From a virus: 64,000 nt of DNA. Position 1 is the stretch's first letter, and every line of letters starts with the position of its first letter. Shown in pieces: positions 31-10,699 of the stretch. The DNA lies in the IMG/VR virus record IMGVR_UViG_3300037063_000214. The stretch is one strand, 5' to 3'. Both the position numbers and the translations under genes were made by a program. The notes under the pieces were generated by a model. The model was not told the DNA's origin and did no database searches. It saw nothing but the letters and a program-made list of their open reading frames with translations.

Positions 31-173
31 GAACTTCTTTTAAATGCGGGTTCTCCCCATACATAAAGATTCTCAGGCTACGCTTGAATTTAATACTTCT
101 ACGTTAACGCCTGATGGCTCGTTCCGAACCAACTACTCTTTATATAATACTGATAGTTGGAAAATTTGTCAAG
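31..173 (-). repeat. Copy 1 of a 143-bp direct repeat (about 97% identical to 10556-10699). On the minus strand it carries a near-consensus promoter: TTGACA at 167-172, a 17-nt spacer, TATTAT at 144-149.
   Basis: Direct comparison of the two copies; they differ only by a 2-nt T-run length and a CCCCATACAT versus CCCCCACAT indel. The -35 and -10 hexamers were read on the reverse complement. Confidence 0.8.
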
Positions 174-381
174 CATTATCATACTTTTTTATTTTCGCCT
201 GTAAATAATTGCAAACACTATATTTTACAGGGGATTGGCGGATCTTCTTCATCACAAAATCTTTTTATTTCTGCCATTACCAAATCATGATGCTCAGCAC
301 ACAAATACCAGCCACCTTGATTTGCCACACTAGGTTTACCGCACTCTTCGTCTTCTTCAATCATGTAACCGCAGGGGTGTC

Positions 382-570
382 TCATATCTTGGGTGTAATA
401 GACGGGATTTCAATAATTGCTGATGGTACCTCTACCGAGACCGTACTCTTACCCTCTTCGCCGCATATCAAGCACTTAGTCGGACCTTGACGAAAGCCGC
501 CGACGCTGCACCATTCGATGTTCCACAAATGCCCGTTGGGGCACTTCAGTTCAATAATTCCGTAACCCAT
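382..570 (-). CDS. small Cys-rich (zinc-ribbon-like) hypothetical protein
   Basis: 62-aa ORF containing CPNGH...C...CLIC. Belongs to a chain of small minus-strand ORFs. Confidence 0.3.
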   Translation of the reverse strand: MGYGIIELKCPNGHLWNIEWCSVGGFRQGPTKCLICGEEGKSTVSVEVPSAIIEIPSITPKI

Positions 571-717
571 TCGGCTCCTCCGTATCTGGCGGCATTATTA
601 TGGGATAGAATAACCACGGACACGCTTGCATGTTCTCCCACGCCATGTTCTCCCACGCCATGTTCTCCCACGCTTGTTGCGCTTCCCAGAGTTTCAACTG
701 TGTTGCCCAGTATTCGT

Positions 718-924
718 TCATGATAGTCCACTCGGCCCCGGCATTGGCGGGGCGTCGTAAATCACGCCGATCTTGTTTCCGTCACGATCGTAAATCGGTC
801 TGTCGTAGTTCGGCGGATCGTCCCTTGTCGAACCTCTCGCTGGCTCAGACTTCGGTCTGTTCCTATCTGGCTTTGGCTTCGGCTTGCAGTCATACATCAA
901 ATCGGACAAACGTTTCGCCGCCAT
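718..924 (-). CDS. hypothetical protein (Pro/Asp-rich), within a GC-rich island
   Basis: ORF with AGGAG 7 nt upstream of the ATG on the minus strand. Confidence 0.4.
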   Translation of the reverse strand: MAAKRLSDLMYDCKPKPKPDRNRPKSEPARGSTRDDPPNYDRPIYDRDGNKIGVIYDAPPMPGPSGLS

Positions 925-1189
925 TTTCCACTCCTATTTTAAGGAACTCAAAGTAGAATCAATTTCCCTAATAACTTCATCCGCATCATCTTTCTTAGGG
1001 AAACTGGTCTCCAATTTTATACTCCGTATGCCTATAACTTTCTAATCGGCGTAATAACTTAAAAGCTGCGCGTTCAGTTGAATCCATAAAAGGAAATTTT
1101 AGCCAGTACCATAAATATTGTTGCCTTCCAGTCTTCCAGCACTCGAATCATTTCATGCGGATTGATCATAATACCCATTCTTTAGCCAT

Positions 1190-1519
1190 CTAGTTCCAAC
1201 TTGGACGCTGTTGCACCCATTCTATCCATGCTATTACATCTGGATGATCTTTCAACTTCTCTAAAGTGTTGTACTCTCGTTCCAACTCTTTGTTAGTGAA
1301 AAGGCTATGCAGTTGCCGGTGACACGGCATACAAATCATGACCAATACATTGCGATTTTTCCCTAAATCCCGCTTAACCTTTTTATTGTGGCGAGCCTTG
1401 GGAACCAGATGATGCCCCGATAAACTTTGATTTTCTCTCCCACAAAGTTCGCATGTGTCCATCAATACTCCCACTCCAACCCCAATGTGGTCCAATAGAC
1501 TATCGCCTTGGAAAGACAA
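1190..1519 (-). CDS. HNH homing-type endonuclease
   Basis: CELCG...HHLVP...N...CMPCH motif. The true start is probably the internal Met at about 1462. Confidence 0.7.
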   Translation of the reverse strand: MSFQGDSLLDHIGVGVGVLMDTCELCGRENQSLSGHHLVPKARHNKKVKRDLGKNRNVLVMICMPCHRQLHSLFTNKELEREYNTLEKLKDHPDVIAWIEWVQQRPSWN

Positions 1520-1597
1520 TCATCGCATATCCACATATAGTTTCCGGATTCTGGGAAATTTATTAAACGATGAGCTGGTTGATGACAGAAAGCATAC

Positions 1598-2431
1598 CTA
1601 CATATTTTTTCCATATTTGACTTCATGCCCCCAAAAGTCCATTTGAGCGACAGTGATAATTTTGCTTATTTTTTCCCTGTCCACATCTGGTGGTAAAGTG
1701 GATTTTTCTTGGGCTGCTTGCAATTCATTAAATCCATTGGCGGCAAAGACTTCAATCTCAGGAAATGTAAATTTTCCCCGGCGAACCAGCTTAAGAAACT
1801 CCGCATCTGGTCTGGGTAATGTGATTGTGCCGGTATTCATCAATTCAATACCCTCACTCAATACTCGAAGCAAATGGAGGGCCGCTTTTGGGTCGTAGCC
1901 AAATTCCTCAATAAGATTATCCCGCTGTCCGTGTTTACCTGTGCCTTTCCCTTGCAGTCGTCTAAGCATCTCTTTAGAAAACTCCATGAAATGAAATCCA
2001 GCTCTACGGGAAATAAAATGTTTTCGATCAAGCACGATATAGTTATTCCAAAATTGCCAATTTTTTTGAGCTTGATTTTCCGCGAACAAAAACTCTAGGG
2101 CTGTGGTATTCCCTGTTGCTGCCATACCTGCCCATTTACGCAAAGAATACAAATTTATATCCACATCATCGGCCGTATTTTTACGAGAATCTTCCGCAGT
2201 GCTCCAGACTTGAACATCTGGATTAAACCATTTCTTTCTTCCATCCGCTTCAATAAAATACTGTGGAATGCCTAAAACATGCTCCACAGGTTGGATATAA
2301 ACTCCCATAATATCAAGGTCTGTAGGTTTATCTCCCTTAGCACTATGCAAACCCGACCCGCCGATAAACAAATGTATCGTATTGTCATACCAAGCAAAAT
2401 CAGTCTTTCTTATTTGTTCTTCCAAGTCCAT
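1598..2431 (-). CDS. Pol-beta superfamily nucleotidyltransferase
   Basis: GGSGLHSAKG...TDLDI (GS...D.D) and a downstream DDVDI acidic motif. Overall resemblance to KNTase/ANT-like minimal NTases. Confidence 0.55.
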   Translation of the reverse strand: MDLEEQIRKTDFAWYDNTIHLFIGGSGLHSAKGDKPTDLDIMGVYIQPVEHVLGIPQYFIEADGRKKWFNPDVQVWSTAEDSRKNTADDVDINLYSLRKWAGMAATGNTTALEFLFAENQAQKNWQFWNNYIVLDRKHFISRRAGFHFMEFSKEMLRRLQGKGTGKHGQRDNLIEEFGYDPKAALHLLRVLSEGIELMNTGTITLPRPDAEFLKLVRRGKFTFPEIEVFAANGFNELQAAQEKSTLPPDVDREKISKIITVAQMDFWGHEVKYGKNM

Positions 2432-2606
2432 GAAGCCCTCTCAATTTCTTTTTTTCCTGGTATTTATCCCAGTTTTCAGCTTTAGCTCGCAGCATATCGT
2501 AGGCGAGCTTGGTCAAGATAAACCTTCCATCTTTTAATACCGCTACAGAACCAGTGGGGGCATTTCCGCTCTCGTAATATATGATTTGTACCGTTTCCGT
2601 ATCCAT
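2400..2606 (-). CDS. small hypothetical protein, overlaps the NTase start
   Basis: 68-aa ORF, overlapped and likely translationally coupled with the downstream NTase. Confidence 0.3.
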   Translation of the reverse strand: MDTETVQIIYYESGNAPTGSVAVLKDGRFILTKLAYDMLRAKAENWDKYQEKKKLRGLHGLGRTNKKD

Positions 2607-2707
2607 ACCTTCTAGTATACACTGAAAATCGTAAATGGCTAGATCAAAAGGAGAAGGGGCGACCTGACCAGGATCACCCCTTTAACTATGGACGAATCAC
2701 CAACCAG

Positions 2708-9617: not shown

Positions 9618-9704
9618 CAGAGAGTACCGGACTCGAACCGGTGTGCCCTATTTCTAGAAGCAGTCGCTTTCGAGGCGACCTACCATGCCCACTGGTTACT
9701 CTCT
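9618..9704 (-). tRNA. tRNA-Ser (anticodon CGA)
   Basis: Acceptor AGAGAGT/ACTCTCT. Anticodon stem GTCGC/GCGAC with loop CTCGAAA. Long variable arm. T-arm ACCGG-TTCGAGT-CCGGT. CCA not fully encoded. Confidence 0.8.
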
Positions 9705-9709
9705 AAACT

Positions 9710-9798
9710 TGGCGATGACAGACCGATTCGAACGATCGATACCTTGCGGTATGGTAGCTTTCCAAGCTACTGGGTTAATCCATCTCCCCCATGTCATC
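9710..9798 (-). tRNA. tRNA-Ser (anticodon GGA)
   Basis: Acceptor GATGACA/TGTCATC, discriminator G and CCA. Anticodon stem GTAGC/GCTAC with loop TTGGAAA. Long variable arm. T-arm GATCG-TTCGAAT-CGGTC. Confidence 0.8.
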
Positions 9799-9897
9799 AA
9801 ATCGCAGGGAACATAAAACATACAGTTGGTACAACTCCACTGCCGGGTTTCCCCCAGTGGGTATCGAAGTAACTGTACGCAACACCGCTGCGAATTT

Positions 9898-10347
9898 TTA
9901 CTCTTCTGGACCTTCACCGACTTCGATGAAGTCCATTAAATCTTCCCCACCAGCATATTTACTAGTGTTACCGCCTAGCCATCCGTTAAAAGCTCCCTGC
10001 TCTGTGGCTTTACGAATACCTTCAACTAAAAACAACCAGGCATCGTATGGCATGTCCCTGCGTAGATAGTTGCATCGCATACATGCTGGATTGACATTCG
10101 TCTTTAAATGACCTAAGCTATTATCTATTCTATCCAAGGTCATCCTTATTTTTGTCTCTCCGCAGTAAAAACATCCATTGCTAATTTTATCCTTAATAAA
10201 GTCTTTGTCAAGATCATTTTCCCGAAGCAATTTTTTATCTGAGCTACGAGAATCTCGCCAAATAATGCTAGGTAAAAATTTAGGATCTTGCCTACGCCTT
10301 TTAGCCCAACGATGCCGTTTTTCCCTACAAACTATTTTAGTGTCCAT
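9898..10347 (-). CDS. HNH endonuclease
   Basis: CFYCGE...LDRIDN..GH...NVNPACMRCN motif. Confidence 0.7.
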   Translation of the reverse strand: MDTKIVCREKRHRWAKRRRQDPKFLPSIIWRDSRSSDKKLLRENDLDKDFIKDKISNGCFYCGETKIRMTLDRIDNSLGHLKTNVNPACMRCNYLRRDMPYDAWLFLVEGIRKATEQGAFNGWLGGNTSKYAGGEDLMDFIEVGEGPEE

Positions 10348-10379
10348 GCTAAGAACACAGAAAGTTTGTTTTGATGTTA

Positions 10380-10469
10380 TGGCGGAAGTGCCGAGGCTCG
10401 AACTCGGATAGCCCTTTCAGGCTTCGGCGGCTTAGCAAACCGCTGGTTTAACCATTCACCCACACTTCC
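10380..10469 (-). tRNA. tRNA-Ser (anticodon GCU)
   Basis: Acceptor GGAAGTG/CACTTCC, discriminator G and CCA. Anticodon stem GCGGT/GCCGC with loop TTGCTAA. 20-nt variable arm. T-arm CCGAG-TTCGAGC-CTCGG. Confidence 0.85.
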
Positions 10470-10476
10470 TTAAAAT

Positions 10477-10510
10477 AAAAAAGCCGCCTTAATCGGCGGC
10501 TATCAGTGTT
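10477..10510 (-). terminator. rho-independent terminator on the minus strand (GCCGCC-GATTAA-GGCGGC followed by TTTTTTATTTT)
   Basis: Perfect 6-bp GC stem and U-run read on the reverse complement. Confidence 0.65.
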
Positions 10511-10663
10511 TCTTTAATTGCTTTACGCAAACACACCCCGTTGGAGCTACTAGTTGAACTTCTTTTTTAAATGCGGGTTCTCCCCCACATAAAGATTCTC
10601 AGGCTACGCTTGAATTTAATACTTCTACGTTAACGCCTGATGGCTCGTTCCGAACCAACTACT
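10478..10663 (-). ncRNA. candidate small RNA, about 185 nt, running from the repeat-borne promoter to the terminator
   Basis: TTGACA-N17-TATTAT (minus-strand -35 at 10693-10698, -10 at 10670-10675). No ORF between the promoter and the terminator. Confidence 0.35.
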
Positions 10664-10699
10664 CTTTATATAATACTGATAGTTGGAAAATTTGTCAAG
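10556..10699 (-). repeat. Copy 2 of the 143-bp direct repeat, carrying the same near-consensus minus-strand promoter
   Basis: Sequence identity to 31-173. Confidence 0.8.

Follow-up and report, generated by a model that had tools for sequence, protein, structure and literature searches.

Candidate codon-specific attenuators ahead of tRNA clusters, and a promoter-leader repeat that probably moved among them, in a huge-phage-like genome

Introduction

In a 64,000-nt stretch of viral DNA (IMG/VR record IMGVR_UViG_3300037063_000214; the window below means this whole stretch), a segment with a near-consensus promoter occurs twice, 10.5 kb apart. What do the two copies drive, and how did they come to be alike? 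The original prediction, made from the letters of the window, read them as a duplicated small RNA (sRNA) gene family or a duplicated regulatory cassette, and considered a link to the vault-protein gene between them. We followed the copies into related metagenome and IMG/VR contigs, which are cited here by number (L001 and so on). Four promoter-headed units were recognized in this phage, one of which carries a transfer-messenger RNA (tmRNA) gene. We propose that the other units are probably leader-peptide transcription attenuators of phage tRNA clusters, and that a leader cassette passed from one paralogous promoter to another by recombination, breaking the sensor of one unit.

Leader-peptide (ribosome-mediated) transcription attenuators are known for amino-acid operons and for pheST, the familiar examples being trpL, hisL, thrL, and pheM. 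Why phages carry tRNA genes has been debated for more than 50 years, either codon compensation or the replacement of tRNAs destroyed by host shut-off or tRNA-targeting defence being invoked (PMC10264068, PMC11555353, PMC12409363).

Results

Repeat and promoter family

The repeat search returned one family (56-179 and 10582-10705, 97%), which alignment widened to two direct copies of a segment of about 145 bp at 29-173 and 10554-10699. The copies are about 97% identical, which confirms the repeat originally placed at about 31-173 and 10556-10699 and extends it slightly. They differ in four alignment columns (one substitution, a 1-nt indel, and a 2-nt indel), and a 23-mer taken from it has two occurrences in the window, where shuffles predict 0.00. 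Their sense strand is the minus strand, as for nearly all genes of the window.

As predicted, each copy holds a minus-strand TTGACA-N17-TATTAT promoter, with 11/12 matches, and the repeat starts one base upstream of TTGACA. The copy 1 promoter (144-172, minus strand) has TTGACA at 172-167, the 17-nt spacer AATTTTCCAACTATCAG, TATTAT at 149-144, and a predicted transcription start near 137. The identical copy 2 promoter (10670-10698, minus strand) has its -35 element at 10698-10693, its -10 element at 10675-10670, and a predicted start near 10663. Apart from L019, a close relative, this strict 29-bp promoter was confined to the four units of this phage that end in a terminator; orthologous promoters lie at the same loci in relatives. 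A diverged family member (TTGACAAAAATTAAAAACTATGAGTATCATATAA; 42261-42294, minus strand) is placed to drive a 275-amino-acid (aa) zinc-ribbon open reading frame (ORF) directly, with neither cassette nor terminator. Just upstream of this promoter at 42294 is a C5 cytosine DNA methylase gene (42395-43333, minus strand; Pfam E = 2.8e-58).

Downstream of the promoter, the copies share a leader cassette of about 113 nt. The repeat therefore combines, as two layers, a near-consensus sigma-70-type promoter that belongs to a conserved family with a leader cassette private to one phage species. The idea of a duplicated regulatory cassette was borne out in this form, in that the unit opens at the promoter and runs into a common 5' leader. 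Three units have the cassette immediately behind their -10 element; at the fourth, a 25-nt fragment of it is present in one strain (L021). At copy 1 (29-143, minus strand) it has three predicted hairpins and a 16-codon upstream ORF whose TGA overlaps the ATG of the leader ORF that follows (ATGA). We hold this structural description of the units, as read from sequence, to be very probably correct.

Copy 2 and the Ser/Leu leader

At copy 2, the cassette (10554-10669, minus strand) is followed by a remnant of a Ser-codon leader ORF that has no start codon (10502-10553, minus strand; ..AGT AGC TCC AAC GGG G..). Next come an intrinsic terminator (AGCCGCC-GATTAA-GGCGGCT plus TTTTTTATTTT; 10471-10501, minus strand) and tRNA-Ser(GCU) (10380-10469, minus strand), the first gene of the cluster behind it, which begins 12 nt past the stem, right after the T-run. 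The predicted RNA of about 190 nt would end at this terminator ahead of tRNA-Ser(GCU), as originally suggested. The cluster continues with tRNA-Ser(GGA), tRNA-Ser(CGA), and tRNA-Ser(UGA) (9522-9798, minus strand) and tRNA-Leu(UAA) (8645-8727, minus strand). Within it lies a gene for a 149-aa HNH-type endonuclease (9898-10347, minus strand) with invariant C..C and DRIDN..GH..N..C.RCN columns.

The same locus in L019 has flanks about 96% identical to those of the window and the identical 29-bp promoter, and no cassette. Right after TATTAT, where the window has the cassette, L019 has 34 other bases that hold the start codon and first nine codons of a Ser leader ORF. Also missing from the window are 10 nt, CGGGTATCGG, which in the predicted L019 fold supply the antiterminator strand. 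The Ser-codon ORF is intact in L019 and in the more distant L020 (MNALHISSLSSSS... and ...SSTSLSSSSIS...), upstream of the same tRNA-Ser/Leu cluster. The statement that copy 2 contains no ORF holds for this window, where the stretch is a relic of a leader ORF that its relatives retain. A Ser-rich leader in the intact Ser-cluster unit of relatives had been predicted before these loci were fetched.

In the L019 leader MNALHISSLSSSSNGAGIGVFA, 8/21 codons are cognate to the downstream tRNAs (P = 2.8e-4), including the run TCA TCG TTA TCT AGT AGC TCT; the S-S-L-S-S-S-S run is the ancestral form of copy 2, present in both relatives. Four tRNA-Ser genes (GCU, GGA, CGA, UGA) stand behind the L019 terminator, and the contig ends before tRNA-Leu(UAA), which the window copy shows and which reads the TTA codon midway in the run. 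The L020 leader MKRNYSSTSLSSSSISGRGGLGVRWRGL, with 10/27 cognate codons (P = 3.3e-5), precedes tRNA-Leu(UAA) and three tRNA-Ser genes. To judge from these alignments, copy 2 is a putative Ser/Leu sensor disabled by the cassette insertion and the 10-nt deletion. What is left would be a non-coding transcript whose terminator has no predicted competitor, that is, a decayed attenuator. Between terminator and tRNA-Ser, L019 carries a 9-nt tandem duplication (ACGGAAGTG; 640-660) that is absent from the window, another sign of fast-changing junctions.

Copy 1 and the Trp-array leader

Only the first five codons (MTFRK) of the 40-codon leader ORF of copy 1, MTFRKSNTNVASKQGERQRKHNNRWFGAAGLFLVDSTDVV, lie inside the window (1-17, minus strand; codons at 17-3), and the rest is past its edge. 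Contig L001 extends 10 kb past position 1 and shows, in order, copy 1, a Shine-Dalgarno sequence, the 40-codon ORF (12400-12522), a terminator (12546-12576), and tRNA-Trp at 12577, 9 nt after the terminator stem. The different 3' sequence predicted for copy 1 beyond the window edge is thus found. The array has 15 readable anticodons; after Trp come His, four Arg, Asn, Gln, Asn, Lys, and Phe, and further on Arg, Lys, and Lys. The ORF includes the run CGC CAG CGG AAG CAT AAT AAT CGC TGG TTT, all codons of which are read by downstream tRNAs, and this all-cognate run suggested a leader-peptide attenuator.

The relatives L006, L016, and L017, whose major vault protein (MVP) homologues are 68-73% identical to that of the window, have an orthologous promoter, a homologous ORF of about 34-40 codons, a terminator, and tRNA-Trp. 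Cognate codons number 11-18 of the 33-39 in the Trp-array leaders, where the background is 0.22-0.27, and the best 8-codon windows reach 7-8/8 when scored against the pooled array set (8/8 for the copy 1 unit). A hairpin within the ORF keeps its pairing in L017 through two compensatory changes (C-G to U-A and A-U to G-C) that replace Q by W and W by H in the peptide, which suggests selection on RNA structure. The 5' untranslated regions (UTRs) of these orthologous units are only about 15-20 nt long and without cassette, so that the leader of about 113 nt appears as an insertion particular to the phage of the window. From the sequence, copy 1 would head an intact sensor for the Trp/His/Arg/Asn/Gln/Lys/Phe array, with the cassette added in its 5' UTR. 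In addition, tRNA-like genes with irregular anticodon loops (ARAGORN '???' with two-base anticodons) were observed inside the arrays at L001 14521-14591, L022 5907-5975, L024 3910, and L033 6119.

tmRNA and Thr/Ile/Gln units

A leader 25-mer located a third cassette copy in the metagenome collection (L010, L012, L014, and L015). Copy 3 has the same promoter and the leader to about +90, lacks hairpin 3, and continues into unrelated sequence that matches the permuted (two-piece) tmRNA model RF04321 over its full length (74.4 bits, gathering score 47, model positions 1-213). This tmRNA gene lies at L012 8041-7828 (minus strand) and L014 3909-3696 and is also present on L111 (IMGVR_UViG_3300036876_000124). 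Its acceptor pairing is GGGGGUG/CACCUCCACCA with a G3.U acceptor pair, and its tag ends in ...APKAFAAAA; ARAGORN did not report it. An Ala-rich ORF behind copy 3 was considered as another leader peptide and set aside, as Rfam shows that it is the tmRNA tag. Two-piece tmRNA genes and the tmRNAs of huge phages have been described (RF04321; PMC7162821). The copy 3 payload resembles them in its full-length match, G3.U pair, and tag ending in AAAA; the cassette itself falls outside the model, and the likeness is confined to copy 3, outside the window. Just downstream of the tmRNA terminator, a CyVA-1 RNA motif (RF02965, 43.3 bits against a gathering score of 41.4; L014 3610-3530, minus strand) stands upstream of a 107-aa ORF with a signal-peptide-like N-terminus.

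The copy 3 contigs also contain a fourth unit with the same promoter and no cassette; the strain variant L021 has the 25-nt cassette fragment right after this promoter. Its leader MNQTSTTRITTTQCTTT... was seen first, and tRNA-Thr genes downstream of it were predicted before the extended L021 locus was examined. L021 then showed two tRNA-Ile genes, tRNA-Thr(CGU), tRNA-Thr(GGU), tRNA-Thr(UGU), and tRNA-Gln(UUG). Of the 28 leader codons, 13 are cognate (P = 2.7e-5).

Two further features of these loci were observed. A tRNA with the anticodon CUA (an amber suppressor, labelled Pyl by ARAGORN) occurs at L012 2359-2433 (minus strand), L021 7909-7983, L023 2304, L027 3016, and L034 2438, and its conservation may reflect late TAG recoding. 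A gene for a conserved 126-aa DUF6915 protein is a regular component of tRNA clusters (L021 10001-10381, L022 6001-6375, and L023-L043 around 4001); lying between the attenuator terminator and the first tRNA in Thr/Ile/Gln units, it would be co-regulated with the tRNAs.

Leader ORF family across the clade

Across this huge-phage clade, 18 distinct leader ORFs fell into four codon classes, each enriched in codons of the downstream tRNAs and each followed by a terminator. The Trp/His/Arg/Asn/Gln/Lys/Phe class has four distinct leaders (L001, L006, L016, and L017) and the Ser/Leu(UUA) class two (L019 and L020). Nine distinct leaders from IMG/VR make up the Thr/Ile/Gln class (L023, L025, L027, L031, L035, and L043; for example MTQSTQTRITTTTTTII... 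and MLTITMPHTQTQTTISS...). The Tyr/Leu class has three (L022, L024, and L029; for example MKRTYLTLSLYSLLSGLGGGVFEG), two from IMG/VR and one from a Logan contig, which precede Tyr/Leu tRNA clusters. When the classes were cross-tested, the best 8-codon windows scored 7-8/8 on their own tRNA set and 1-3/8 on the other sets. Among 1296 control small ORFs, one reached 7/8 for Ser/Leu, two reached 7/8 for Thr/Ile/Gln, and four reached 8/8 for the Trp array; as the controls come from the same loci and include the true leaders, these counts roughly equal the number of true leaders, a correspondence taken by count and not by identity.

In the nine loci scanned, only cluster heads had terminators beside tRNAs. 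Each has a GC-rich stem and a T-run; the tRNAs start 9-35 nt past the stem (9-12 nt in the window copies), and about 20-30 nt separate the stop codon from the stem. As the tRNAs begin directly after the T-run, there is no room for a separate tRNA promoter. An AGCCGCC/GGCGGCU-type terminator is mostly common to the Ser, Thr/Ile/Gln, and Tyr/Leu classes, and the Trp-array units use other stems. Leaders of the same three classes mostly end in Gly-rich codons, which spell GGxGV (GGCGGYGGUGUGUU) in the Ser and Tyr/Leu leaders, a strand that can pair with the 5' half of the terminator. Seven units were folded, each up to the terminator loop with the 3' terminator strand omitted, and in the predicted folds of L001, L017, L019, and L020 an ORF-internal segment pairs with the terminator 5' strand. 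The unit promoters, where they could be read, belong to the same family. The attenuator family looks modular in sequence, the codon run being exchanged to suit the cluster.

Proposed mechanism

Several features expected of attenuators are seen in the units: a codon-run ORF near the transcription start, an intervening terminator, and codons that match the regulated genes. The promoters, ORFs, codon-anticodon matches, terminators, predicted alternative pairings, and insertion and deletion boundaries can be read off the sequences directly. Transcription, leader translation, stall-dependent read-through, and any RNA function of the cassette are what we infer from them. In the proposed mechanism, transcription would start at the family promoter, and the short leader ORF with its run of codons for the downstream tRNAs would be translated. 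The 3' part of the ORF could pair with the terminator 5' strand and form an antiterminator. When the cognate charged tRNAs are plentiful, the ribosome would cross the run and open the antiterminator, the terminator would form, and the tRNA genes would stay off. When they are scarce, the ribosome would stall in the run, the antiterminator would persist, and the polymerase would enter the tRNA genes. Rising phage tRNA levels would then restore termination, a negative feedback. We consider this attenuator mechanism fairly probable.

Extended to the clade, it is reasonably likely that these huge phages gate their tRNA clusters with modular attenuators of four classes, which would sense codon-specific stress, such as host tRNA cleavage or decay, and induce the missing tRNAs. 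In the phage of the window, the same promoter and the private cassette would also drive the tmRNA gene, linking ribosome rescue with tRNA supply.

Probable spread of the cassette

The promoters are a near-identical family, and the segment just downstream of them appears to have been exchanged between units, probably by recombination or gene conversion seeded in the promoters. Mosaic variants were found: the 5' part of copy 2 in L003 carries two variants typical of copy 3 (a hybrid), L021 contains a piece of the cassette, and in L019 the cassette is missing. These variants support the suggestion that the repeats take part in recombination, whereas the inversion suggested with it does not follow, because direct repeats could give deletion and not inversion. 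Free-standing HNH endonuclease genes lie inside or beside the tRNA clusters (window 9898-10347 and 1190-1519, both minus strand; L001 15991-16536), and those near both copies could supply the double-strand breaks driving conversion.

Discussion

Several observations weigh against the attenuator reading. Whole-ORF codon enrichment is weak for two Trp-array leaders (P = 0.06 and 0.09). These leaders are also conserved in amino acids, L006 and L016 differing by about four synonymous and three non-synonymous changes in the 3' two-thirds of the ORF, so that a function of the peptide is possible. Only 6-8 nt separate the -10 element from the start of the Ser leaders, whose translation would therefore have to be leaderless. 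In L006 and L016 the predicted antiterminator helix reaches the terminator stem with no more than 1 nt of overlap, and in the Thr unit it is weak; the switch geometry is thus not uniform. In the window, intact tRNA-Ser genes stand behind the damaged sensor of copy 2; they may now be read through constitutively or at a low level, or a hidden control may come from the cassette. Finally, the tmRNA and Thr contigs are tentatively assigned to the same genome as the window from the shared cassette and the equally long longest contigs of relatives; MVP-based searches of IMG/VR found nothing.

The units resemble trpL, hisL, thrL, and pheM in having a short ORF with a regulatory codon run, a terminator ahead of the genes, and, in the predicted folds of most units examined, an antiterminator pairing that overlaps the ORF; the Thr/Ile-rich phage leader is close to thrL in style. 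They differ from classical attenuators in three respects. They would regulate phage tRNA genes, in place of genes for biosynthesis or synthetases; the codons of the run correspond to the downstream anticodons, one array leader mixing seven amino acids; and the units make up a modular set of paralogues in which promoter and terminator type are held in common. No report of tRNA-cluster attenuation in phages was found among 8 million full texts, which include a minority of the subscription journals, and no such system appears in a bacterial attenuator survey (PMC2965389), a paper on phage tRNAs and defence (PMC10264068), or a huge-phage survey (PMC7162821). Codon-specific attenuators gating phage tRNA clusters appear to be an undescribed use of attenuation.

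If the proposal is true, phage tRNAs are expressed on demand and not constitutively, and scarcity of specific charged tRNAs is a selective pressure for phage tRNA genes. Leader, terminator, and a reporter would make a portable assay for codon-specific translation stress during infection, and classical attenuation would be extended from amino-acid and synthetase operons to tRNA genes and viruses. The repeat itself illustrates how control units evolve, near-identical promoters acting as recombination handles that move leader segments and sometimes destroy a sensor.

Among the alternatives, the one that survives best takes the cassette as a functional cis-acting leader (a put- or nut-like antitermination, processing, stability, or regulator-binding element) that co-regulates the tmRNA and the tRNA clusters and lets the terminators be passed without a peptide sensor. 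We regard this as possible but unlikely. Each of the three full copies immediately follows the same promoter and has a strong terminator further on. The cassette shows moderate structure and varies little among the strain contigs examined, and copy 2 retained its promoter, terminator, and tRNA genes after losing the peptide sensor. Its conservation is limited to one phage species, however; the orthologous units of relatives have no cassette, hairpin 3 is dispensable in copy 3, and the 25-nt fragment in L021 resembles recombination debris and not a module. A function of the cassette of its own, of whatever kind, seems doubtful, if a little less so. It may compensate for the lost copy 2 sensor, for instance as an antitermination or processing element common with the tmRNA unit, or it may be a neutral passenger of promoter-seeded gene conversion.

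Lambda PR'-6S RNA-tR' and HK022 put exemplify processive antitermination. The likeness to them lies in a strong promoter, a short non-coding transcript, and a strong terminator followed by key genes, and in a duplicated promoter-proximal RNA element. The same units of relatives differ in carrying leader ORFs, putatively translated sensors, instead. The PeSL cassettes of T4-type phages are a compact strong early promoter plus terminator stem-loop, repeated many times in variable, hyperplastic genome regions (PMC2839356, PMC4122927). Here, too, sigma-70-like promoter cassettes are repeated and their copies recombine to give mosaic genomes. Unlike PeSL, the present repeat is not a compact unit, as it joins the promoter to 113 nt of transcribed leader and contains no terminator, the terminators being copy-specific and 50-300 nt further on; it occurs in only 3-4 copies, each at the head of translation-related RNA genes.

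Searches for the cassette elsewhere agree with its confinement to one species. INPHARED gave no match to the first 12 kb by megablast or to the copy 2 unit by distant blastn. A 23-mer was absent from GTDB genomes, and an exact 29-mer was absent from IMG/VR, where copy 3 is present and differs at one base of that 29-mer. Against relatives (L006-L009 and L023-L123), nhmmer gave promoter-length matches only, save the phage's own contig L111, and the cassette was not found upstream of 80 other IMG/VR permuted tmRNAs. The few near-identical variants offer no real covariation and do not speak for a conserved fold. Several candidate identities were rejected. A coding cassette was discarded because the frame that opens at the internal ATG runs for 16, 7, and 0 codons across the three copies and a TTG-initiated 19-codon frame has no codon run. 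A resemblance to the T-box and the glutamine riboswitch had no Rfam support. A match of TGGTTCGG between the cassette and the Trp leader ORF is of a kind that, by our own estimate, chance would give about 0.2 times for such an 8-mer. Descent from a tmRNA was dropped, as the cassette lies outside the RF04321 match and the beta_tmRNA model aligns only its unpaired 5' flank there.

That the short ORFs are functional micro-proteins, the terminators merely ending transcripts and the codon-tRNA match being incidental, is improbable. Such a reading can draw on the Trp-array ORFs, in which MT..K.N and NRWFG.GL(F) persist from phage to phage and several changes are synonymous; an annotation pipeline predicted one of these ORFs as a gene. 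It would leave to coincidence that four unrelated codon classes each match only their own downstream tRNA set, at scores that only one (Ser/Leu) and two (Thr/Ile/Gln) of the control ORFs attain, and that two of the matches were predicted ahead of the data. Within a class, moreover, the peptides vary freely beyond the codon run, the RNA strand predicted to pair with the terminator is the one that encodes the shared C-terminal GGxGV, and the tRNAs directly after the T-run have no space for a promoter of their own.

The copies were also considered as genes of a trans-acting sRNA family with a conserved structured 5' domain, variable 3' domains, and their own terminators. The cassette folds better than mononucleotide shuffles (z = -3.5 at copy 2, -2.3 at copy 1), as does the whole copy 2 transcript (z = -3.3), which has no usable ORF in the window; copy 1 with its flank reaches only z = -1.7 against dinucleotide shuffles. 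One strain variant turns a G.U into a G-C pair and so keeps a pair of hairpin 1, whereas a G-to-A variant breaks a predicted pair of hairpin 2, and hairpin 3 is missing in copy 3. The conserved part precedes an mRNA-like leader ORF at copy 1 and the tmRNA at copy 3, so that with the ORF remnant of copy 2 a common 5' leader stands before three unrelated payloads, and no relative has the cassette, not even the close relative L019 at the corresponding locus. No Rfam family matched: apart from tRNAs, nothing in either copy reached a gathering score, and E values up to 10 gave weak, terminator-driven matches. The sRNA family of the original prediction is thus quite improbable, slightly more so than the micro-proteins. 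Its speculative link to vault RNA also fell away, since L006, L016, L017, and L018 carry MVP without the element, and no vault RNA, Y RNA, or other curated covariance model reached its gathering score on the cassette copies.

An assembly artefact, a terminal redundancy, or attachment or recombination sites bounding a mobile MVP island is very improbable: the direct repeats do bracket a 10.4-kb block (MVP, RlaP, PTH2, and tRNAs) whose content differs from that of relatives, but three independent metagenome contigs (L001-L003) have both copies internally, 10.5 kb apart in the same unique flanks, further contigs carry either copy singly, a third copy lies elsewhere in the genome, the left boundary is a promoter already present at the same loci in relatives without the cassette, no integrase stands beside either copy, and the 11 contigs examined showed no deletion or circle junction between the repeats.

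Genomic context and minor observations

The window is huge-phage-like, with a one-strand gene order, many small ORFs, an NAD-dependent ligase, a ribonucleotide reductase, HNH endonucleases, and six tRNAs, and its relatives lie on IMG/VR viral contigs of 332 and 456 kb. The repeats flank a block that encodes an MVP homologue, RlaP, a PNKP-type HAD domain, PTH2, and the tRNA-Ser/Leu cluster. RNA- and translation-related genes around the repeat occupy 1598-5161, 8916-9191, and 11019-12320 (all minus strand); among the proteins are the 817-aa MVP homologue, RlaP, the PNKP-type HAD protein (L001 annotation), PTH2, a SprT-like protease, and a weak PCRF-domain match. MVP followed by RlaP is syntenic in five relatives.

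Elsewhere in the window, an IS200/IS605-type transposase-like ORF (phrog_506, E = 5.6e-67) lies at 37260-38309 (minus strand) in a phage-like region. Two 42-nt tandem copies, 95% identical and with 63 bp spacing, were found at 25229-25333 inside a 256-aa ORF (25052-25822, minus strand).

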